Source: a virus (lineage: Duplodnaviria; Caudoviricetes). From it: DNA of 57,795 nt. Made by a program: the position numbers and the translations under genes. The stretch's first letter is position 1; every line of letters starts with the position of its first letter. The stretch is taken from the IMG/VR virus record IMGVR_UViG_3300005512_000039, positions 1-57,795 of that record. One strand, given 5' to 3'. The notes below the pieces were generated by a model. The model ran no database searches and had not been told where the DNA came from. It was given only the letters and a program-made list of their open reading frames with translations. Positions 3,615 to 44,750 of this stretch are shown in pieces.

Positions 3615-3637
3615 GGGGGCTTCGGCCCCCTTTTTTT
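3615..3637 (+). terminator. intrinsic terminator
   Basis: GGGGGC-TTCG-GCCCCC followed by T-run. Confidence 0.85.
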
Positions 3638-4925
3638 ATTCCGTGATGGTTCCGGCGGCGATTGTTCGATTATTTTCTTCATCAATAAGGATGAAGGCTC
3701 CGGTGCTTTTATTTTTTTTAAAACGGTCAAATAAAAAAACGTTTTGAGCTTTTATATTGACTTGACCAATTTCATTCATGTTCAGAGTTAAACAAGGTTT
3801 GATTGGCCTTAACGTTTCCATATCAATCCGGTGTTGAATTGATTTTACGCGTATTCGGGTTTCACCACAGGAATGTTTCATAAGGTATGTCCGAGATAAA
3901 TCTAATGGTTTTTCATCAAACCAACACAGTTCAGCCTTGAAGTTGTCCCCTTGAGTCATGGGGGCGGTGACATCGTGAAAAAACATTCCCCTCGACACAT
4001 CAACCTCTTGATCTAAAAATATTGTTACGGACTCCTGAGCGGATACCGATTTAACACAATCTCCCGACGCATTTAGAATACGTGCAACGCTTACTCGATG
4101 TCCTTTCGTTCCAATTAAAACCTCGTCTCCCAAATTAATAACGCCCGAAACGACCAAACCTTGATAACCCCGTAAATCAAGGCCCTCAAAACCAGAGTTT
4201 TTTCGTACATTGTCTCGATTAAGACGCATCACTCTTTGAACTGAAAACCTAAAAGGAAGCGCACTTGAATTATTTGTTAATGGCAGACGTTCTAAATACT
4301 CTAATAAGGTAGGCCCCGCGTACCAGTTCATGTATTCACTTCGAATGGTAACGTTATCCCCTTTAAGTGCAGACACGGGTATTGAATTAACCTGTACGTA
4401 TCCAATAGATACAGCAAGGCGAAAACATTCTTTCGTGATGTCTTGATATGTTTTTTTAGAAAAATTAACTTTATCCATTTTATTGACAGCAAATACCACG
4501 TGGGAAATACCTACCCACCGTGCAAGATATAAATGCCTTCTCGTTTGGTCTTTCACTCCACTCTCGGCATCAATTAAAATAACGACTAGCTCTGCTGAAC
4601 TTGCCGCAGTAACCATGTTTCGGGTGTACTGCACATGACCGGCAGAGTCCCCAACAATAAATTTTCTAGAGGGTGTTGAAAAATAACGATAGGCAACGTC
4701 GATAGTAATACCTTGTTCGCGTTCAGCTAATAGTCCATCCGTAATCAGAGATAAATCAATTTCTTTCATACCGCGTTTTTTCGAGGAAGCTTCAATAGCA
4801 CTTAGCTCATCTATTTGTAAGCTTTTGCTATCAAATAACATTCGACCAATAAGGGTGCTTTTTCCATCATCTACGCTCCCTGCAGTAATAAAACGAAGCA
4901 AACCTGACTCCCCTTTTGCGTTCAT
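3636..4925 (-). CDS. cysN: sulfate adenylyltransferase subunit 1 (GTPase)
   Basis: LRFITAGSVDDGKSTLIGR, DGLLAEREQGITIDVAYRYFST, GHVQYTRNMVT, NKMD, GAFILID motifs. Confidence 0.97.
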   Translation of the reverse strand: MNAKGESGLLRFITAGSVDDGKSTLIGRMLFDSKSLQIDELSAIEASSKKRGMKEIDLSLITDGLLAEREQGITIDVAYRYFSTPSRKFIVGDSAGHVQYTRNMVTAASSAELVVILIDAESGVKDQTRRHLYLARWVGISHVVFAVNKMDKVNFSKKTYQDITKECFRLAVSIGYVQVNSIPVSALKGDNVTIRSEYMNWYAGPTLLEYLERLPLTNNSSALPFRFSVQRVMRLNRDNVRKNSGFEGLDLRGYQGLVVSGVINLGDEVLIGTKGHRVSVARILNASGDCVKSVSAQESVTIFLDQEVDVSRGMFFHDVTAPMTQGDNFKAELCWFDEKPLDLSRTYLMKHSCGETRIRVKSIQHRIDMETLRPIKPCLTLNMNEIGQVNIKAQNVFLFDRFKKNKSTGAFILIDEENNRTIAAGTITE

Positions 4926-5815
4926 TAAAAATAACCTTCCTTTTTTCTTATCTCCATTGATGCTTCGCTTAATTGATCATCTAATCGAGTCGCGCCCCTC
5001 TCTGTGATTTTAGTTTGAGCCGTTTCTAAAATGACTTCCTCAACGTTTTTTGCTCTGGATTCTACGGGGGCAGTACAAGTAATATCTCCCACCGTCCTAA
5101 ACCTCACACTCATTCTTTTTATTTGATCAGATTCTTTTGCGGGAGTAATAGGTGTAACGGGAACTAAAAAATTATTCTTTATAACCACCTCCCTTTCATG
5201 AGCAAAATAAATACTCGGAAGGTTAATCCTTTCACGCTGTACATATTCCCAAACATCTAATTCAGTCCAATTGGATATCGGAAAAACTCGAACGTTTTCT
5301 CCGTCAAAAACTTTGGCGTTATATAAATTCCAAATCTCAGGGCGTTGATTCTTTGGATTCCATTGACCAAATTCATCTCGAAAAGAAAAAATTCTTTCTT
5401 TTGCACGAGCTTTTTCCTCATCCCTTCTAGCACCCCCAATGCAAGCGTCAAAATTATGTTCTGAGATCGCATCCAGTAAGGTTATTGTTTGATACTTATT
5501 TCTTGGTTCCCCCTCGTGTTTTAGATGAACGCGCCCTTGTTTGATAGAATCCCCTACCGATCTTACGACTAAATTTAAATTATTGTCCTTAACAGTTGAA
5601 TCTCGGAAATCAATAACTTCTGGATAGTTATGTTCGGTGTCAATATGAAGTAAGGTAAAAGGTAAGCACTCTGGGAAAAAAGCTTTAAGTCCTAAATGAA
5701 GAACGACGGCAGAATCTTTGCCTCCAGAAAATAATAAAGCCGGATTGTTGCATTCAGCCGCTACTTCTCTAAGTATGTAAATAGCCTCTGACTCAAGTTC
5801 ATCCAAATGCGACAT
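4925..5815 (-). CDS. cysD: sulfate adenylyltransferase subunit 2 (start corrected to MSHLDELESE)
   Basis: LFSGGKDS PP-loop, GGARRDEEKARAKERIFSFRD, RVFPISNWTELDVW, C-terminal SMEIRKKEGYF; TAATG-coupled to cysN. Confidence 0.97.
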   Translation of the reverse strand: MSHLDELESEAIYILREVAAECNNPALLFSGGKDSAVVLHLGLKAFFPECLPFTLLHIDTEHNYPEVIDFRDSTVKDNNLNLVVRSVGDSIKQGRVHLKHEGEPRNKYQTITLLDAISEHNFDACIGGARRDEEKARAKERIFSFRDEFGQWNPKNQRPEIWNLYNAKVFDGENVRVFPISNWTELDVWEYVQRERINLPSIYFAHEREVVIKNNFLVPVTPITPAKESDQIKRMSVRFRTVGDITCTAPVESRAKNVEEVILETAQTKITERGATRLDDQLSEASMEIRKKEGYF

Positions 5816-5820
5816 TAAAA

Positions 5821-6321
5821 TTATTCCTTGTGCGCTTTCAAATACTCTGAAGCGCGAGCCGTGATCCGTGAATCGTCTTTCAGTAGCCCTATGGCGTGGT
5901 TGCACGGACGGCAAAGCAGTCCTCGAACCTTGTTGGTCGAGTGATCGTGGTCTACTGCCATGCGGTAGACGAGTTGCGCTTGGTGTATCCCGCAGATCGC
6001 GCATTGGTAGTTTTGATTTTTGAGCATCGCTTTAAAGTCCTCGAAGGTGATGCCGTACTTGAGAACGAGTTTGCTGTCCTCGACGTTCTTATGAATTTTG
6101 TTTCTAGGGGCAAAGGCGGGGCACTCACGGGCCATGTAATTTTTCTTAATCGAACGGCCTTGTTGCTCGTGTGTTCTCCCGCAGTGTTTACATCGACCGA
6201 TCCACTTCGAGGGTTGTCCAAGGGCAAAGACAACAACGTGATCGTTCTCTTGCCAGAGTAAATCTATGCGTGGCTTACGACTTCTTGTTTCGTGGGCCAA
6301 TGACTGATTCGGGGTTGACAT
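5821..6321 (-). CDS. endonuclease VII-family HNH nuclease (probable homing endonuclease)
   Basis: KYGIT...QNYQCAIC...AVDHDHSTNKVRGLLCRPCNHAIGLLKDD. Confidence 0.9.
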   Translation of the reverse strand: MSTPNQSLAHETRSRKPRIDLLWQENDHVVVFALGQPSKWIGRCKHCGRTHEQQGRSIKKNYMARECPAFAPRNKIHKNVEDSKLVLKYGITFEDFKAMLKNQNYQCAICGIHQAQLVYRMAVDHDHSTNKVRGLLCRPCNHAIGLLKDDSRITARASEYLKAHKE

Positions 6322-6328
6322 CGATTAA
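6267..6328. repeat. 62-bp perfect direct repeat, copy 1
   Basis: TGCGTGGCTTACGACTTCTTGTTTCGTGGGCCAATGACTGATTCGGGGTTGACATCGATTAA, identical at 6990-7051. Confidence 0.97.
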
Positions 6329-6340
6329 AATCATCTTCCG

Positions 6341-6937
6341 TCATGTGTTCTTCTTTTTTTTTATATTCCATGTTGGTGTGTAAAATGTTGATAGCTTAGT
6401 GTTTGGTATTTTTTTTGCGTATATCATTTTTTTATTTGTTGAAACACGTTCTGATTTGTTAGCAAGTCCTTTATGTGTTTTAGTACTACCCATTGTTTCA
6501 CCTAAATAAACCCAATTATCAGCTAGATATAATGTACCTTTACGATAATCTTCTTCTACAACAAAAGTTTCAAACCCATGTACTTTTACTTTATATCTTT
6601 CTTCCCAATCAAACGATATTCTTTTACGCCAACGCGACAAAACAAACGTAGCTAAATTAGGAATGTGTTTTTCTAATCTGAATACGGTGTTGTTTATTAT
6701 TGAAGGTAAAGCTACTTTTTTGTTGTCTTTAGTTAAACCAAAATAATTATCCCTTGTTTTAACCGCCCACACTGAACTAGCACCACTTATTATCCCAATA
6801 ACATTGGAGTCTAAATTAATAATATAGTGAAGTTGTTGTCCATGAGTTCCTTTGTTAGGTACATAATGTCTATTACGAATATTTTGATAAACTGGATCAG
6901 TTCTTTTACAACGAATAAGTTCTATATTAAAAGTCAT
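6341..6937 (-). CDS. DUF4338/Druantia DruA-like (Mom/GNAT-related) protein
   Basis: RHY, RDNYFG, IINNTVF, PNLATFVL, DWEERY, ETFV, GTLYLADNWVYLGETMG motif series; visibly AT-rich. Confidence 0.7.
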   Translation of the reverse strand: MTFNIELIRCKRTDPVYQNIRNRHYVPNKGTHGQQLHYIINLDSNVIGIISGASSVWAVKTRDNYFGLTKDNKKVALPSIINNTVFRLEKHIPNLATFVLSRWRKRISFDWEERYKVKVHGFETFVVEEDYRKGTLYLADNWVYLGETMGSTKTHKGLANKSERVSTNKKMIYAKKIPNTKLSTFYTPTWNIKKKKNT

Positions 6938-6989
6938 AGGTCATCACACTAATTGTCCCCCTGATTTAAGTAAGTCTCCACCAAATACG

Positions 6990-7051
6990 TGCGTGGCTTA
7001 CGACTTCTTGTTTCGTGGGCCAATGACTGATTCGGGGTTGACATCGATTAA
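6990..7051. repeat. 62-bp perfect direct repeat, copy 2 (3' end of xseB)
   Basis: identical to 6267-6328. Confidence 0.97.
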
Positions 7052-7246
7052 GCTGTTGGTTTTCTTATCATACACTTGGATTTGTTGCTGAACGTTTTTT
7101 AATTCTATATCGCAAAAGTTAATCAGCTCCATTCCCTTTTTGTACAAGGCTAAGGCTTCGGATAGCGGTAGATCGTCCTCTTCCATTCGGGTAACACACC
7201 CCTCCAGTTCTTTTAAATTTGCTTCGAACGGTTTTTGTTTACTCAT
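6998..7246 (-). CDS. xseB: exodeoxyribonuclease VII small subunit
   Basis: FEANLKELEGCVTRMEEDDLPLSEALALYKKGMELINFCDIELKNVQQQI matches the XseB pattern. Confidence 0.9.
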   Translation of the reverse strand: MSKQKPFEANLKELEGCVTRMEEDDLPLSEALALYKKGMELINFCDIELKNVQQQIQVYDKKTNSLIDVNPESVIGPRNKKS

Positions 7247-8162: not shown

Positions 8163-8427
8163 TGTCGCTCGAAGTTTTCTTGGTTGGTTGCCAGTTATCT
8201 ACTTCAGCATACCATTTTCCTGACCTAGCTTCACAAACTTGAACGTTTATCCAATCACCTTCTTTTTGCTCTAACCATCGGATCACATCGGCTCGTTTGA
8301 TACTCAGATTACATTTAATCCAATCGGGGGCCGTGTCCCGTGGTTTCTTAGCTAGGAGCCCATCAACAAATTCTTTGGCGGGTTTTTCAGAAGGGGTGTC
8401 GGACTTCATGTCATTAATATCTATCAT
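8143..8427 (-). CDS. conserved small phage protein (possible ssDNA-binding fold)
   Basis: APDWIKCNLSIK...WINVQV...SGKWYAEVDNWQP; GAGG RBS. Confidence 0.7.
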   Translation of the reverse strand: MIDINDMKSDTPSEKPAKEFVDGLLAKKPRDTAPDWIKCNLSIKRADVIRWLEQKEGDWINVQVCEARSGKWYAEVDNWQPTKKTSSDNGSRGF

Positions 8428-8438
8428 TTTTACCTCAT

Positions 8439-8473
8439 AAAAAAAACCCTTAGTCAGGGGAAATGACTAAGGG
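8439..8473 (-). terminator. intrinsic terminator
   Basis: CCCTTAGTCA/TGACTAAGGG stem, T-run on minus strand. Confidence 0.8.
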
Positions 8474-8558
8474 CTTTAGCACTACACGGAGAACAAAAGG
8501 AAAACAGATCCTGATGTCAGGTTAATTTTATCTAAAAACAAAAAGTACTGCAACGACA

Positions 8559-8747
8559 TTACACACTGTATGGGCAGTAACTGTTAAACACAAAGCGTTG
8601 AACGTAAGTGCAGTTAAAATCCATGCAATACGTGCCAACGTATTTGTAACCGCTGTTGGTCATAACCCCTTCGCACTTCAACAACTTCCCTGCGAACGCG
8701 CTTAGTGGCAATGTAATTAGTAATACCGCTATAATTTTCTTTAACAT
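8559..8747 (-). CDS. small secreted 4-Cys protein (start corrected to MLKKII)
   Basis: AGGAGGAG RBS; signal peptide MLKKIIAVLLITLPLSAFA; four Cys in mature part. Confidence 0.75.
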   Translation of the reverse strand: MLKKIIAVLLITLPLSAFAGKLLKCEGVMTNSGYKYVGTYCMDFNCTYVQRFVFNSYCPYSV

Positions 8748-8757
8748 AACTCCTCCT

Positions 8758-8928
8758 TTAATTATCGAAACGATCATCCTCATCACGAGGTTTGTACTTC
8801 TGAACAAAATCATCAAAGATAACCCGCAACTGACCGCTAATTGTGCGGCCCTCGGCCTTAGACATCTCTTTAATCACGAGATAAATCTCTCTAGGCACTA
8901 ATACGCTTTTCCATTTGTTTGTATCCAT
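8758..8928 (-). CDS. ribbon-helix-helix DNA-binding protein (start corrected to MDTNKW)
   Basis: WKSVLVPREIYLVIKEMSKAEGRTISGQLRVIF fits the RHH pattern. Confidence 0.75.
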   Translation of the reverse strand: MDTNKWKSVLVPREIYLVIKEMSKAEGRTISGQLRVIFDDFVQKYKPRDEDDRFDN

Positions 8929-8987
8929 AACACTTCCTTTAGGTTTACATGGGATTATATGCGAATATATGAGACCGTGCAACTATC

Positions 8988-9016
8988 TTGACAAGAAAAG
9001 GCAAAGTTAAGACAAT
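8988..9016 (+). promoter_or_regulatory. sigma70 promoter upstream of riboswitch
   Basis: TTGACA-N17-GACAAT. Confidence 0.7.
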
Positions 9017-9022
9017 GCGAGG

Positions 9023-9070
9023 ACGTTCATCCAATCGGACGGAAGTAGACTACTCAGTCGAAGGAACGCA
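9023..9070 (+). ncRNA. glnA-motif (glutamine-I) riboswitch
   Basis: CGTTCA-TCC(AATC)GGA-C-GGAAGTA-GAC(TACTCA)GTC-GAAGGAACGC: P1 CGTTC/GAACG, P2, E-loop and P3 of the glnA RNA consensus. Confidence 0.85.
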
Positions 9071-9094
9071 CCTAACTTTAAATAGGAGGGTGTT

Positions 9095-9202
9095 ATGACT
9101 ATTTGGACTCAATATCGCAGACAACAAGAACGTGAAGACTATAAAAAGTCTAGCGCGATCAAGAAACTTGTGTGGATGCGCGTCTTACAAATCTATAGTT
9201 AA
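9095..9202 (+). CDS. 35-aa basic peptide under riboswitch control (not in ORF track)
   Basis: MTIWTQYRRQQEREDYKKSSAIKKLVWMRVLQIYS*; AGGAGG RBS. Confidence 0.7.
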   Translation: MTIWTQYRRQQEREDYKKSSAIKKLVWMRVLQIYS

Positions 9203-9228
9203 AAAAAGCCCCGACGTAATGTCGGGGC
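9201..9228 (-). terminator. intrinsic terminator after DNA polymerase
   Basis: GCCCCGAC/GTCGGGGC stem with T7 on minus strand. Confidence 0.85.
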
Positions 9229-9256
9229 AAAACAACTCGGAGGAGTGAAACAGCAA

Positions 9257-11155
9257 TTACTTTGCCTCGCCCCAACTAGGTCCGATTTCAATATCGCACT
9301 TATTTGGAACTTGCAAGGGCACTGCTTTAGTCATTATATCAGCAATATATTTCGCTTGCTCTTTGTCTTTGACAGACATGGCGATCTCATCATGAATCTG
9401 AGTTAAAGGAACTAAGCCCTCTTTATACAAATCCACCATTGCTTTTTTGGTCATATCTGCCGCTGAAGCTTGGATTAGACGGTTCAGGGCTTTGTATGTG
9501 TAAGCCCTTTTAAGCCTCGTGGTGGCTCCGTATTCTTGAACAGCCTCTTGGTAAGGCAAGGCTTTGTTCATGGCAAAGGTGTCCGGTTCCCATCGGTCAA
9601 AACGGCATTTACGACCCAGTATCGAACGGATAGAACCCGACGATGCTTTATCGTTTAACCGGTTCATAACACCGTTCATCAAACCCTTAACAAAAGGTAC
9701 ACGCTTGTGATACTGACCAATCAACTCTTTAGCATCATCCATTGAAATGTCCAACTGCTCCGATAGCTTTCCAACCCCCATTCCGTACATCATGCCAAGG
9801 TTAATTACTTTAGCTTGCTTCCTCGGTATGTTAGCCATTTCCGCCACCATTGTATGGAAGTCTGTGCTAGGATCTTCGTTGTACGCTTCTACAAAATCTA
9901 ATGCACCCTCCAATGGCAAATTACGACTCTCACCATAAACATGAGCATAATGGACCAAGATCCGTGGTTCCTGTTGCGAGAAGTCTATTGCCGCCCACTG
10001 CTCTCCCTCTTCTGGCAAAAACAAAGAACGTATCATTGGCCCAATCTCAGGGTCCCTTGCGGGAATTTGCTGAAGGTTTGGGCTATTCATACTTAAACGA
10101 CCGGATACTGTGCCGCCGTCATCTGACCTTATTTGGTTGATGTGACTATGGATTCTACCGTCAGCGTGGCAGTGTTTCATGATTGTGTTGAGGAAAGTGC
10201 CGGTGGTCTTATTCAGGTTCCTAGCCTCAACGATGAGTTGCGCGAGAGGGTGGGGGTTCTCTTGGAGGAAAAGTTTAGTGAAGCTCGGTGCGCCCTTTTC
10301 CGTCTTTGGATATTGGAGGCCGACTTTGTCGAACGCTTTTACAAGAGATTGAGCCGCCCAGATTTCAACGTCACGACCGGCAATCTTCTTGATCTCTTTC
10401 ATGACTTCCCGTTCCCGCTTAACAAGACTGTTCCGAGTTTTCTCAACCCTATCTTGATCGACCCTGACCCCACGCCAAGTCATTTCGATAAGACATGGGA
10501 GAAGTTCCAGTTCAAGATTAGCGATGCCCCAGAGGTCTTCTTTTCCAAGTTGAATGCTGAAATAATTCCAGAGCTCAAGAGCGAGTTCAGCGTCCGCCTC
10601 ACCGTAAGCACCGACATGCATTGCGGGAAGCTTCCACATCTCAGCTTTAGGATCAACGCCGAAACTTCTAGCGGCTTCGACTAAACCTTTTTCTGATTTA
10701 GTTTTGCCTAACAAGTCATAAGACAGGGCATTCAAACTGTAGCTATATCGGTTCTCATCTAATAAAGACGCAATCAACATTGTGTCGATTATTCTTCCTT
10801 TGAGATCAAAACCCATACGTTTAATCCACCCCGCATCGTATTGAGCGTTGTGCATAATTTTATCGGCAGGACATTCGAAGACTTTTTTCAGCCACTTGTT
10901 GACAATCTTTTCGTCTAAATTACCTCCACCAAGATGGCGAATTGGGATATACCCTGACCATCCATCTACGGCTACGGCATAGCCTACAACCTCCCCGTTT
11001 CCTGTAGCCCATCCTGGGCCATTGGTTTTAATATCGGGGTCTCTCGTTTCTACGTCGATAGCAATTTTTTTTGCGGTTGTGATGTCTGGCAATTCCATCG
11101 GGGGTATCCATTCGCTTTTTGGAGCAAACATCGCCATCTGCAAGTTTCCTGCCAT
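9257..11155 (-). CDS. polA: DNA polymerase, family A, with 3'-5' exonuclease
   Basis: DVET, HNAQYD exo motifs; SGRLS...PNLQQIP, DFSQQEPR (motif A), RKQAKVINLGMMYG (motif B), QIHDE (motif C). Confidence 0.97.
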   Translation of the reverse strand: MAGNLQMAMFAPKSEWIPPMELPDITTAKKIAIDVETRDPDIKTNGPGWATGNGEVVGYAVAVDGWSGYIPIRHLGGGNLDEKIVNKWLKKVFECPADKIMHNAQYDAGWIKRMGFDLKGRIIDTMLIASLLDENRYSYSLNALSYDLLGKTKSEKGLVEAARSFGVDPKAEMWKLPAMHVGAYGEADAELALELWNYFSIQLGKEDLWGIANLELELLPCLIEMTWRGVRVDQDRVEKTRNSLVKREREVMKEIKKIAGRDVEIWAAQSLVKAFDKVGLQYPKTEKGAPSFTKLFLQENPHPLAQLIVEARNLNKTTGTFLNTIMKHCHADGRIHSHINQIRSDDGGTVSGRLSMNSPNLQQIPARDPEIGPMIRSLFLPEEGEQWAAIDFSQQEPRILVHYAHVYGESRNLPLEGALDFVEAYNEDPSTDFHTMVAEMANIPRKQAKVINLGMMYGMGVGKLSEQLDISMDDAKELIGQYHKRVPFVKGLMNGVMNRLNDKASSGSIRSILGRKCRFDRWEPDTFAMNKALPYQEAVQEYGATTRLKRAYTYKALNRLIQASAADMTKKAMVDLYKEGLVPLTQIHDEIAMSVKDKEQAKYIADIMTKAVPLQVPNKCDIEIGPSWGEAK

Positions 11156-43246: not shown

Positions 43247-43690
43247 TTAAGAGAGGTTGTTGTTCTGTAGATAAAGAACAGTTACCGTAGCTGCACCTGC
43301 GGTAGCCGCAGTTCCAGTTTGGTTATATGTAACTGTCACATTTACATCAGAAGAACCGATATCAATCAGATTTGGGATCTGAGACACGTCTGATGTAGCA
43401 AGAACTCTAGCCGCACTGCCAACTGCAAGCGCGTCAGCGTATTGATCTGCTGTTGAACCATCACCAATATCAAACGTGTTGGTTGTTCCTGCATCAAATG
43501 CAGTCGTTACATCAACAGCGATTTGATAAATTTGACTGTTGGCAGGTAGTGTTGCAACAACGGTTTCTGTGCCATCTGCACCGAAAACAACGTTTGCACT
43601 TTGTGCCATTAGAACAAAACCGACGTTGGCAGATGCGCCTTCGCGGACTGAACCGGCCTTAATAGGACCAGAAAAAGTAGTAGTAGCCAT
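43247..43690 (-). CDS. capsid decoration/cement protein (start MATTTFSGP)
   Basis: AGGAG RBS; TTFSGPIK, LPANSQI, ATAGAATVTVLY; follows MCP. Confidence 0.7.
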   Translation of the reverse strand: MATTTFSGPIKAGSVREGASANVGFVLMAQSANVVFGADGTETVVATLPANSQIYQIAVDVTTAFDAGTTNTFDIGDGSTADQYADALAVGSAARVLATSDVSQIPNLIDIGSSDVNVTVTYNQTGTAATAGAATVTVLYLQNNNLS

Positions 43691-43768
43691 GTTTTTCTCC
43701 TGTCGTGGCAAATGTCAGTCGCACCATGCGAACTGTCAGGGTACCTATAGCATACAAAAAATTTAAAC

Positions 43769-43841: not shown

Positions 43842-44750
43842 TTATGCAGCACCTGGAGTACCAAAAACAGAACGCCAGTCAGAAACACCAAAGCTGTAAC
43901 GCTCTCGTGCCTTGAATCGCATGTTTCCAGTATCAAAATCTCCTTCCATTGCCGTTTTAATTGGCGAACGGTTGAAGTATTTGAATCCGTTAGGTGCGTC
44001 TGTCTTAATGAAGAATGCGTCTGTATCCGTTAGGAAGTGGTTAACCACTGCGCCATCAGGAATCATACCCATGTTCTTCATTGCGTTAGTGTCGTTGTCA
44101 GCAGTTCCTGAACGTAGATTTGAGTTAATAACCCGCTCCGCAATAAATTGCAGTTCTTTAGGGATAATCAACTTTGTTCCACGAACAGCGATCTTTAGAC
44201 CACGCTCATCGGTAAGACCTGCAATGTCAATAAGCATCTGCTCAAGAGAGGTCTCGTTGAGGTCAGCTGCTACAGTCAATACGTTACGCTGGTTTCCAGA
44301 CAAGCTAGGGTGAGCGGATGAGCAAAGAGCTGCACCATCACCGACAGGGAAGCTAGTATTGAACGCATTGTTCAAAATAGCTGCTGCCTTGATCTGCTTT
44401 GTTTGGGCCATTGAACGTGCAAGAGCCTTTGTATATCGAGATGCAAGACGATCATAAAGGTTATCTTCGATAGCCTCTTCTGTAATCGAGAATGCAAGTG
44501 CGATAGTTTCGTGTGTGTAACGAGCTGTAAATGTTTCCTGAGCATCGTCAAAACTGATGGCATTACCCTCATTTTTAACAGGTGCTGTGGAGAAACCAGC
44601 GAGCATTACTTCTTCTTCGAAAGCGCGGTCAGATGACTCCTCTTCAAAGATTTCAGCATGCTCATTTTCGTAACGGTTGTATTCGAGCCCGAACAAGGCA
44701 TTAAGGCCGGGTTCTAGCTCTTTCGCCAGTTGTGCGCGAGAAATAGCCAT
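43842..44750 (-). CDS. major capsid protein
   Basis: MAISRAQLAKELEPGLNALFGLEY...KARERYSFGVSDWR; follows scaffold, strong RBS, terminator downstream. Confidence 0.92.
   Translation of the reverse strand: MAISRAQLAKELEPGLNALFGLEYNRYENEHAEIFEEESSDRAFEEEVMLAGFSTAPVKNEGNAISFDDAQETFTARYTHETIALAFSITEEAIEDNLYDRLASRYTKALARSMAQTKQIKAAAILNNAFNTSFPVGDGAALCSSAHPSLSGNQRNVLTVAADLNETSLEQMLIDIAGLTDERGLKIAVRGTKLIIPKELQFIAERVINSNLRSGTADNDTNAMKNMGMIPDGAVVNHFLTDTDAFFIKTDAPNGFKYFNRSPIKTAMEGDFDTGNMRFKARERYSFGVSDWRSVFGTPGAA

Follow-up and report, generated by a model that had tools for sequence, protein, structure and literature searches.

Why would a virus place a glutamine-sensing RNA in front of a gene of only 35 amino acids (aa), and turn both against the direction of the genes beside them? 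The question is raised by IMG/VR virus record IMGVR_UViG_3300005512_000039, of which positions 1 to 57,795 form the window, the whole stretch of DNA analyzed here. The window is a near-complete or complete virus record (57,795 bases, estimated completeness 99%), and its minus strand holds 67 of the 76 non-overlapping open reading frames (ORFs) of at least 60 aa. On the plus strand, between positions 8,988 and 9,202, lies a cassette with a promoter-like site, a riboswitch aptamer of the glnA motif and a very short ORF. The reading favored here, with a probability of about 0.6 for the explanation as a whole, is that the cassette came from a host, that its riboswitch would allow translation of a basic micropeptide when glutamine is high, and that the peptide would feed back on host nitrogen assimilation. 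The elements of the cassette and its nearest surroundings are as follows.

8988..9016, plus strand: sigma-70-like promoter, TTGACA (8988-8993), N17, GACAAT (9011-9016), with 10/12 consensus matches
9022..9072, plus strand: glutamine riboswitch aptamer, type 1 (glnA RNA, RF01739), from a covariance-model match
9068..9073, plus strand: anti-Shine-Dalgarno (anti-SD) strand, made of the last G of stem P1, the 'linchpin' C9069 and ACCU, from the minimum free energy (MFE) and centroid folds and covariation
9084..9093, plus strand: Shine-Dalgarno (SD) sequence AGGAGG (9084-9089) and spacer, with 9088-9093 sequestered by the anti-SD strand
9095..9202, plus strand: 35-aa ORF, stop included (ATG 9095, stop 9200-9202), a predicted basic single-helix micropeptide
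9208..9228, no strand assigned: GC-rich hairpin with a T-run on the minus strand, a possible 3'-end structure for the plus-strand cassette
9257..11155, minus strand: family A DNA polymerase (PolA), the convergent neighbor that marks the insertion site

A preliminary description of this DNA, made from its letters alone, had proposed a glnA-motif riboswitch and named a search with the Rfam model as the check. The model agrees. RF01739 (Rfam 15) matches the plus strand at 9022-9072 over positions 1-53 of its 53, scoring 51.6 bits where the gathering score is 35 (whole-window E 1.8e-8; a second search, over the record, found the same place with E 4.4e-12). The whole-window scan at the gathering score returned two Rfam matches, RF01739 and RF03012, and no match to the Glutamine-II riboswitch (Downstream-peptide, RF01704). 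Aligned to the model, the RNA has three stems (P1, 9024-9028/9064-9068; P2, 9030-9032/9037-9039; P3, 9049-9051/9058-9060) and the conserved CGUUCA, ACGGAAGUA and GAAGGAACG cores. The elements quoted earlier were found in place, with the aptamer string at 9024-9069, CACCT at 9069-9073 and AGGAGGGTG at 9084-9092. For comparison, 79 distinct leaders were aligned, namely those of the window, of the OM43 phage Melnitz and of the viral units (among 114 described below) whose leader starts C[AG][CT][CT]. Changes on both sides of a pair occur in 2/3 pairs of P2 and in 3/3 pairs of P3; P1, which the search pattern fixed, does not vary. As a member of its known class the aptamer is ordinary, and the riboswitch is very probably genuine.

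The expression platform can be traced in the same leaders. CACCTA had been suggested to pair with the region of the ribosome-binding site, and both the MFE and the centroid fold of 9022-9110 contain a six-pair helix, G9068-U9073 with G9088-U9093. Covariation supports it: in alignment A2 of the 79 leaders, 90.4% of the cells of the anti-SD/SD helix are paired, and three of five pairs show both-sided changes, including 62-97 (CG 53, UG 11, UA 10) and 63-96 (CG 41, UA 28, UG 7). The observed covariation score was reached by none of 500 shuffles, and when the 3' partners were slid by 1-3 columns, 28-54% of cells paired as opposed to 94.9% for the structure itself; the 5' strand of the platform is partly fixed by the leader selection, as P1 is by the search pattern, and the SD side was unselected.

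This arrangement is of the gifB type, in that the C after P1 and the bases adjacent to it pair with the ribosome-binding site. According to the accessible part of Klahn 2018 (PMC6212724), C68 of the Synechocystis gifB leader, which follows P1, and the nucleotides after it pair with the ribosome-binding site; glutamine takes C68 into a long-range pair, which is proposed to melt the helix and allow translation; and reporter data show an ON response. By analogy, we infer a glutamine-ON direction for the switch in the window.

Is the cassette a transcriptional unit of its own? It was first described as self-contained, on the plus strand and opposite to its neighbors, and this holds, since the genes on both flanks are on the minus strand (on one side PolA, 9257-11155, on the other small ORFs, up to 8931). 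The TTGACA-N17-GACAAT promoter proposed with it stands in part. The hexamers and spacing are present, and an identical TTGACA-17-GACAAT occurs at the same distance from the aptamer in a related contig (L059/L216); however, one promoter-like site was found in 8700-9500 as against 1.9 +/- 1.2 in shuffles, so that by count the site is no commoner than chance. Promoter-like sites are present in 19/102 viral upstream regions, and in 8 of these 19 the -10 element ends 7-8 nt before CGTTCA. Transcription would start near 9022-9024, where the aptamer begins. The stretch 8300-9900 was compared with contigs of four RNA libraries, and contigs of run X15 span 8771-9061 and 9069-9218 with 0-2 differences; such contigs cannot show transcription, strand or ends of the cassette, and DNA carry-over is possible. 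A peak in depth at 9056-9109 occurs because other riboswitch-peptide cassettes share the conserved 3' part of the aptamer and the platform. At these positions, marine metatranscriptome assemblies (runs X15, X16, X17 and X19) yield contigs of several such cassettes, whose loose ends carry ORFs of the window family, the GTSGY family and an alphaproteobacterial YQWKKF family, at depths up to ~30.

The hairpin at 9208-9228 is conserved in L059. It was considered as a classical terminator of the cassette and rejected, since the plus strand continues AAAAC with no U-tract. By its sequence it is an intrinsic terminator of the PolA gene, because its T-run lies on the minus strand.

These features raise the possibility that the unit acts as RNA, with a plus-strand transcript antisense to, or interfering with, the minus-strand replication operon, which runs from PolA on to the small genes that end at 8931, and with an ORF that is incidental or a stabilizing leader. 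In L059 as in the window, the cassette is convergent with PolA and extends over the stretch upstream of the next gene on the minus strand; a scan of 8700-9500 gave no promoter-like site on that strand, and the hairpin could let transcripts read through into the antisense strand of PolA. However, the platform masks the SD, an arrangement that is sensible only for translation. The frame, length and residue pattern of the ORF are kept in different contexts, in the co-oriented cassette of Melnitz and in chromosomes with differing downstream genes, and its pN/pS is below 1 (given below). An action at the RNA level alone is improbable.

The translation of the ORF at 9095-9202 is MTIWTQYRRQQEREDYKKSSAIKKLVWMRVLQIYS. 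At least 120 viral contigs carry the aptamer by a strict pattern. With the window and Melnitz included, and with the last aptamer of each tandem array counted, there are 122 viral units; among the matches listed, 114 have an SD and an ORF of at least 15 aa after the aptamer, and 112 of these ORFs are complete (16-78 aa, median 39.5). The remaining eight have no ORF by the rule applied, several because the locus ends or another aptamer comes next. By family, again among the matches listed, the ORFs fall into the window's family (41 units, 36 distinct sequences), YRG-repeat peptides (23), GTSGY...NNW (16), ...NPFYP (9), ...DPRLQxI (8) and others (17). Tandem pairs of aptamers before one short ORF, as in the bacterial loci treated below, are seen at seven viral loci (L014, L056, L064, L077, L098, L113 and L117).

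The window family is well defined. Its alignment of 38 sequences is nearly gapless, with an aromatic residue at positions 4 and 7, Cys at 8, basic residues at 9-11 and 17-18, an acidic or amide residue at 15, Y/H/W at 16 and aliphatic residues at 22 and 25. Among 69 within-subgroup pairs, which are not independent of one another, the ratio of nonsynonymous to synonymous differences (pN/pS) ranges from 0.06 to 0.97 and is below 1 in all 63 pairs with pS >0. A profile search of 1.84 billion representative proteins gave 25 matches at E <= 1e-3, of which about 21 are 29-52 aa long and align from residue 1 onward, among them a one-residue variant of the window peptide (P0012) and a 34-aa relative (P0011). 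Conservation of the ORF, on which the first proposal depended, is thus well supported. The ORF had also been called unannotated: it is present, conserved and coding-like, but the exact peptide was already deposited on 25 contigs of a public protein collection, where it has no name and its named relatives are called 'hypothetical protein'. Another match, P0001 (72 aa), consists of two peptide copies fused head to tail; its linker, ...KEGGTM..., is the translated SD region, which indicates a tandem duplication of platform and ORF with loss of the first stop codon.

The predicted product is a soluble and strongly basic micropeptide of one helix. Modeled by AlphaFold2 from the family alignment, it is helical from residue 3 to 34, with a predicted local distance difference test (pLDDT) score of 92.8. 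The isoelectric point is 10.1, there are 8 K+R against 3 D+E, and the sequence is hydrophilic with no membrane-spanning stretch. An amphipathic helix was considered and rejected, as the hydrophobic moment of 0.12 is equaled or exceeded by 73% of shuffles. Pfam at E <= 10 returned nothing for the window peptide, a Burkholderiales-type member or the viral L044, and only unrelated sub-threshold matches for the family-A members L030 and L010; PHROGs returned nothing for the window peptide. Judged by the conservation of its sequence and frame, the peptide is likely to be made and to have a function.

The phage that carries the cassette belongs to a recognizable group. The closest matches of its PolA are DSL-LC04 (58%), 023Pt_psg01 (53%) and the Pelagibacter phages HTVC023P and HTVC027P (50-52%). 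DSL-LC04, a metagenome-assembled lake phage, is the nearest PolA relative; it has collinear homologues of 25 of the 76 window ORFs, with identities of 72% for the major capsid protein, 58% for the large terminase and 52% for the portal. The phage had been described as lacking cyanobacterial hallmarks, and these relatives confirm it. Pfam names of the type 'Pam3 gp33/gp34-like' on the replication module hint at a cyanophage, an identity rejected in view of the PolA matches and the collinear DSL-LC04 ORFs. The PolA of Pseudanabaena phage Pan1 is only 39.5% identical, and the Pam3-named module is shared, at the same position, by DSL-LC04 and HTVC023P, which argues that by relationship the window phage is not a cyanophage. 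Relatives and shared genes thus gave no sign of cyanophage membership, psbA and similar genes not having been searched for specifically. Near-identical DNA of the region occurs in seawater and estuary metagenomes of at least seven studies. The phage is best described as marine or estuarine, of the DSL-LC04/HTVC023P type.

Within this lineage the cassette is a rarity. Eighty viral contigs have a PolA 65-95% identical to that of the window, and 67 of them extend at least 450 nt past the PolA stop; an aptamer lies downstream of PolA in one of the 67, L216. A relaxed pattern with one substitution allowed per block, applied to all 80 loci (443,288 bases), again gave L216 alone. DSL-LC04 and HTVC023P have no RF01739 match above the cut-off (0/2; one 12-bit noise match). 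L216 is the same contig as L059, with its aptamer at L216:2279-2323 on the minus strand and a PolA 95% identical to that of the window. Between L059:520-830 and window 8940-9240, the promoter hexamers, aptamer, platform, first eight codons and hairpin are ~90% identical, and from codon 9 onward the ORF of L059 is a different member of the same peptide family, 29% identical. This looks like either allele replacement or very fast evolution of the C-terminal part. With its own promoter-like site, opposite orientation, patchy presence and cellular homologues, the cassette has the marks of a self-contained, host-derived 'moron', and we lean toward that interpretation.

Rarity also fits a decaying, non-functional passenger from a host, and the window peptide has R8 in place of C8, the most conserved residue of the family. 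Nothing else about the cassette looks decayed: the full-length aptamer (51.6 bits), platform helix, SD, ATG and open frame are all intact. R8 is not peculiar to the window either, being common to L016, L017, L076 and P0011, and a decaying sequence is hard to square with an exact peptide on 25 contigs and with near-identical DNA in the metagenomes of the seven or more studies. We regard a mere passenger as very improbable.

Where might the cassette have come from? A pattern that joins the 3' half of the aptamer to the platform matched 56 loci in one-genome-per-species prokaryote contigs; in a few of them the 5' half is missing, and these few are probably no riboswitches. By title, the loci belong to Cyanobacteria (7), SAR86 (14), Pelagibacteraceae (3), SAR116 (3), other Alphaproteobacteria or Rickettsiales (11), Betaproteobacteria, Burkholderiales or 'proteobacterium' (7) and others (11). 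A window-family peptide is present in 7/7 loci of the Betaproteobacteria/Burkholderiales group. The complete Burkholderiales-type homologues are 35-46 aa long, five of them 35-36 aa, and the one at L176 is cut by the contig end; alignment with the window peptide gives 41% identity for L168 and 46% for L127, and an example of a homologue is MNLWTQYCRRQARDDYYKAQMVRAMLLRALKAYDS. Five Burkholderiales-type genomes of 1.2-2.1 Mb have a unique locus with two tandem aptamers of 51-61 bits. Carriers of tandem aptamers are G001-G005, G120, G163 and G165 (for example L192:9933-10150 and L193:10080-10298).

The chromosomal neighborhood is conserved, with genes for a 4HBT thioesterase, PNPOx, an adhesin-E-like protein, DUF429 and PhyH, and the other flank varies (RraA-like, LrgA or a convergent DUF285 gene). 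No phage genes were found around these Burkholderiales-type loci. Synteny without phage genes marks the peptide family as bacterial, and the phage copies of the cassette look host-derived. The host of the window phage may then be betaproteobacterial (Burkholderiales in GTDB), because the nearest cellular homologues of the peptide are in Burkholderiales-type genomes; this agrees with the Pseudomonadota host that the accessible part of PMC10611076 gives as predicted for DSL-LC04.

Other lineages use the aptamer in front of larger genes. In SAR86 (L175:501-1038, L134, L133) and SAR116 (L171), the same type of aptamer and platform is followed by a gene like gltB (GATase_2, E 6e-40 and 1e-22). The SAR11-type genomes (L142, L144 and L172; Pelagibacteraceae and other Alphaproteobacteria) have it before a gene for a circularly permuted ATP-grasp (CP_ATPgrasp_2, E 2e-27); there the leader is different, with no obvious SD-masking helix.

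An isolated phage carries the same kind of cassette. A blastn search of 50,697 phage records with the window and Melnitz cassettes found the module in only four isolated phages, all of them Melnitz genomes. The Melnitz strains infect the OM43 methylotroph H5P1 and are 77% identical to the window over aptamer, platform and start codon. RF01739 scores 52.8 bits at L125:1501-1549, directly after a permuted transfer-messenger RNA (tmRNA; RF04321, 1116-1448), and the aptamer is followed by CACTTAAC...GGGGAGAGTGTTATG and then by a 32-aa ORF of the window's family. The module spans L125:1501-1670, which is MZ577097.1 46398-46567. In GenBank, the tmRNA feature is extended over the aptamer and a 33-aa coding sequence is annotated on the opposite strand, and the 32-aa ORF is unannotated. 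The cassette adjoins ssrA and a gene for a late-transcription coactivator.

A glutamine riboswitch in a phage with no cyanobacterial hallmarks, as the preliminary description had it, is present here but not new: among phages of non-cyanobacterial hosts, the accessible part of Buchholz et al. 2022 (PMC9004378) already reports one for Melnitz, for Pelagibacter phage Mosig and for pelagimyophage metagenome-assembled virus genomes (MAVGs). The same source reads the Melnitz switch as controlling the ssrA tmRNA and speculates about lysis timing. The switch lies downstream of the RNA gene and upstream of an SD-masked ORF, and so it more simply controls that ORF; judged from this order of elements, the published reading as ssrA control probably needs revising. 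Buchholz et al. also state, in the portion available, that OM43 lacks glnA. That argument against glutamine synthetase (GS) as a target is not adopted here, since the transcriptome table in the accessible part of Gifford 2016 (PMC5120137) lists a type I glutamine synthetase, NtrB and PII for the OM43 isolate NB0046. With glnA absence contradicted by NB0046, GS as the target of the Melnitz peptide is not excluded by that remark.

What, then, would the peptide act on? Nitrogen assimilation is suggested first by the company the switch keeps. Where the target of the switch belongs to a known family, it is a nitrogen gene: DUF4278/IF17-like peptides (23 viral units, among the matches listed) or gltB-like genes. 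A second line comes from GlnE, the GS adenylyltransferase. In the GTDB family that contains all cellular members of the window family, 8 of 29 genomes carry the riboswitch and 18 carry GlnE, with no overlap, that is, GlnE in 0/8 carriers as against 18/21 non-carriers; the genomes are metagenome-assembled or single-amplified (MAGs or SAGs), with completeness unstated. In the wider order the riboswitch occurs in 2/151 sampled genomes. GS and PII are present in all five carrier genomes checked; the GS gene of one Burkholderiales-type carrier is at L197:1492-2901 on the minus strand. A clade without covalent control of GS but with a glutamine-ON basic micropeptide resembles the solution of the cyanobacterial inactivating factors IF7 and IF17, if the analogy with gifB extends to the direction of the switch. 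The available text of the Bolay 2018 review describes these factors as small and highly basic, and as inactivating GS electrostatically. The window peptide is likewise small, strongly basic and Arg/Lys-rich, a weak and non-specific resemblance.

The proposed sequence of events would be as follows. A sigma-70-like promoter would start an RNA with a type-1 glutamine riboswitch at its 5' end. At low glutamine, the G that closes P1, C9069 and ACCU would pair with the 3' half of the SD and the spacer (9088-9093), and translation would be blocked. At high glutamine, the aptamer would close, C9069 would enter a long-range pair, the short helix would melt and the ORF would be translated. The product would be a soluble, basic, single-helix micropeptide of a family that also stands behind tandem aptamers in Burkholderiales-type chromosomes. 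The peptide would feed back on host nitrogen assimilation, with GS as the prime candidate target, and the phage copy would keep or impose this control during infection. One may speculate that the phage supplies a short-lived host regulator after host transcription has stopped, which would keep an unregulated GS from draining ATP and glutamate. By analogy with the known systems, an action on nitrogen assimilation is slightly favored. Inhibition of GS specifically is a tentative proposal, and rather unlikely as it stands; the evidence for it, as for the gating of lytic development that was first suggested beside it, is circumstantial. A little more doubtful still is the broader idea that riboswitch-gated micropeptides are the GS-inactivating factors of GlnE-less streamlined marine heterotrophs, captured by phages including Melnitz.

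Several observations pull against this account. The folding energy of the whole leader is unremarkable, no better than that of shuffles (z -0.39); what speaks for the structure is the covariance model together with covariation. The C-terminal two thirds of the peptide have diverged sharply even from the sister contig L059, and six very close pairs in the family differ only by nonsynonymous changes (pS = 0), including all three pairs of subgroup A3. The kinship with IF17 on which the first interpretation drew did not hold up, since the window family has no similarity to DUF4278/IF17 in Pfam at E <= 10, whereas viral YRG peptides, serving as positive controls, match DUF4278 (PF14105, the IF17 domain) with 30.5 and 26.5 bits (cut-off 25.3). 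The PDB, searched by profile at E <= 10, returned no chain, and the ESM Atlas gave no usable match to any cluster. The exclusivity of riboswitch and GlnE concerns one lineage and may reflect a single evolutionary event, and three of the 29 genomes have neither. Among 10 further riboswitch-bearing genomes, three have a GlnE-family match, two of SAR116 type and one Ca. Marisalimonas; these GlnE-positive carriers hold other peptide families. Absence of GlnE as a general correlate was rejected, the results being mixed outside the Burkholderiales-type family. Inhibition of GS would also cut glutamine when the phage needs nucleotide synthesis. Complex prediction with two copies of the GS of carrier G003, a Burkholderiales-type genome, and its own peptide (alignment A3) gave no answer (score 0.00) and is evidence neither way.

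A rival reading gives the peptide a different function. Riboswitch and peptide may be real and the target may lie outside nitrogen assimilation, glutamine serving as a read-out of the growth state of the host; lysis timing, translation or trans-translation, takeover of a host regulator, and defence or counter-defence are candidate roles. For Melnitz, whose cassette sits beside ssrA and the late-transcription coactivator gene, lysis timing has been speculated upon, as noted above. The C-terminal part of the peptide changes fast between near-identical backbones, as interaction surfaces under conflict do; the Pfam, PDB and Atlas searches disclosed no homology to any nitrogen protein; and at least five unrelated peptide families stand behind the same aptamer in phage contigs. 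However, in bacteria the family sits at syntenic chromosomal loci that have no phage genes around them, which points to a primary role in the cell, and the only known-family targets of the riboswitch in the survey are nitrogen genes. A holin-like role in particular conflicts with a hydrophilic peptide that has neither a membrane-spanning stretch nor an amphipathic moment above that of shuffles. A role outside nitrogen is the strongest of the alternatives and is still unlikely, and feedback on nitrogen assimilation remains the preferred explanation.

Some further features of the window lie apart from the cassette. The second Rfam match is a Mu-gpT-DE RNA (RF03012) at 43688-43741 on the minus strand, with 65.5 bits (cut-off 49). 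It is flanked by the major capsid gene (43842-44750) and a cement-protein homologue (43247-43711), and includes the SD and ATG of the latter. A minus-strand gene cluster at 3636-7246 has no counterpart in DSL-LC04. It includes an EF-Tu-type GTPase with an eEF1A-like C-terminal domain (3636-4925) and a protein with a PAPS-reductase domain (4925-6004), which together resemble a CysD/CysN-like pair, as well as a DruA-like protein (6341-6937) and a homologue of the exonuclease VII small subunit (6998-7246). No tRNA genes were found in the window.

What appear to be undescribed are the peptide family, its place behind the Melnitz switch, and the tandem-aptamer chromosomal form in GlnE-less Burkholderiales-type bacteria. 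No description of the family was found in the literature searched, and subscription journals and supplements may hold one. New as well is how widely the aptamer occurs in genomes of heterotrophs and in viral contigs. Should the peptides regulate GS, this would account for the feedback of glutamine on ammonium assimilation in streamlined bacteria without GlnE, and would show how phages of such bacteria manipulate it. Control of GS by inhibitor peptides behind riboswitches would then be general and horizontally mobile rather than peculiar to cyanobacteria, the micropeptides would be functional analogues of IF7/IF17 without shared sequence, and phage riboswitches would be common, not rare. Since Melnitz and its OM43 host are in culture, the question of whether peptide and GS interact is directly testable.

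Two published generalizations are affected. The accessible part of McCown 2017 (PMC5473149) counts only two phage glnA RNAs, both from cyanophages, and states that phages rarely use riboswitches; the viral contigs with the aptamer, at least 120 by the strict pattern, run against this. Klahn 2018 (PMC6212724), in the portion available, confines glutamine riboswitches and the control of GS by small inhibitory proteins to cyanobacteria. The same aptamer and platform under SAR86, SAR11, SAR116, other Alphaproteobacteria and Burkholderiales titles, with a cyanobacterial title for only 7/56 loci, challenges that view.

Among known systems, gifB/IF17 of Synechocystis PCC 6803 is like the window in its aptamer (RF01739), in the logic of its platform and in its small basic product, as far as the accessible text of Klahn et al. 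2018 (PMC6212724) describes it. It differs in that its product is a DUF4278 protein of 149 aa as opposed to a 35-aa peptide outside DUF4278, and in that the carriers here are a phage and heterotrophic proteobacteria. The T4-like cyanophages likewise bear a glnA RNA (McCown 2017, PMC5473149; S-CREM1, PMC9964418; both in the parts available). RF01704 and the 33-codon Yfr6 ORF of Prochlorococcus also place a glutamine aptamer directly before a very short conserved ORF without a characterized function. The ORFs of Downstream-peptide RNAs are 17-100 aa long according to the accessible parts of Weinberg 2010 (PMC2864571) and Klahn 2018. The aptamer of the window is of a different class, and RF01704 ORFs are DUF4278-like and cyanobacterial, unlike the ORF studied here. 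Melnitz resembles the window as a phage of a non-cyanobacterial host with RF01739, a 77% identical aptamer and platform, and a 32-aa ORF of the same family. The two differ in carrier and orientation: Melnitz is a 141-kb T4-like myophage with a co-oriented cassette, whereas the phage of the window, of the DSL-LC04/HTVC023P type, has 58 kb and an inverted cassette.

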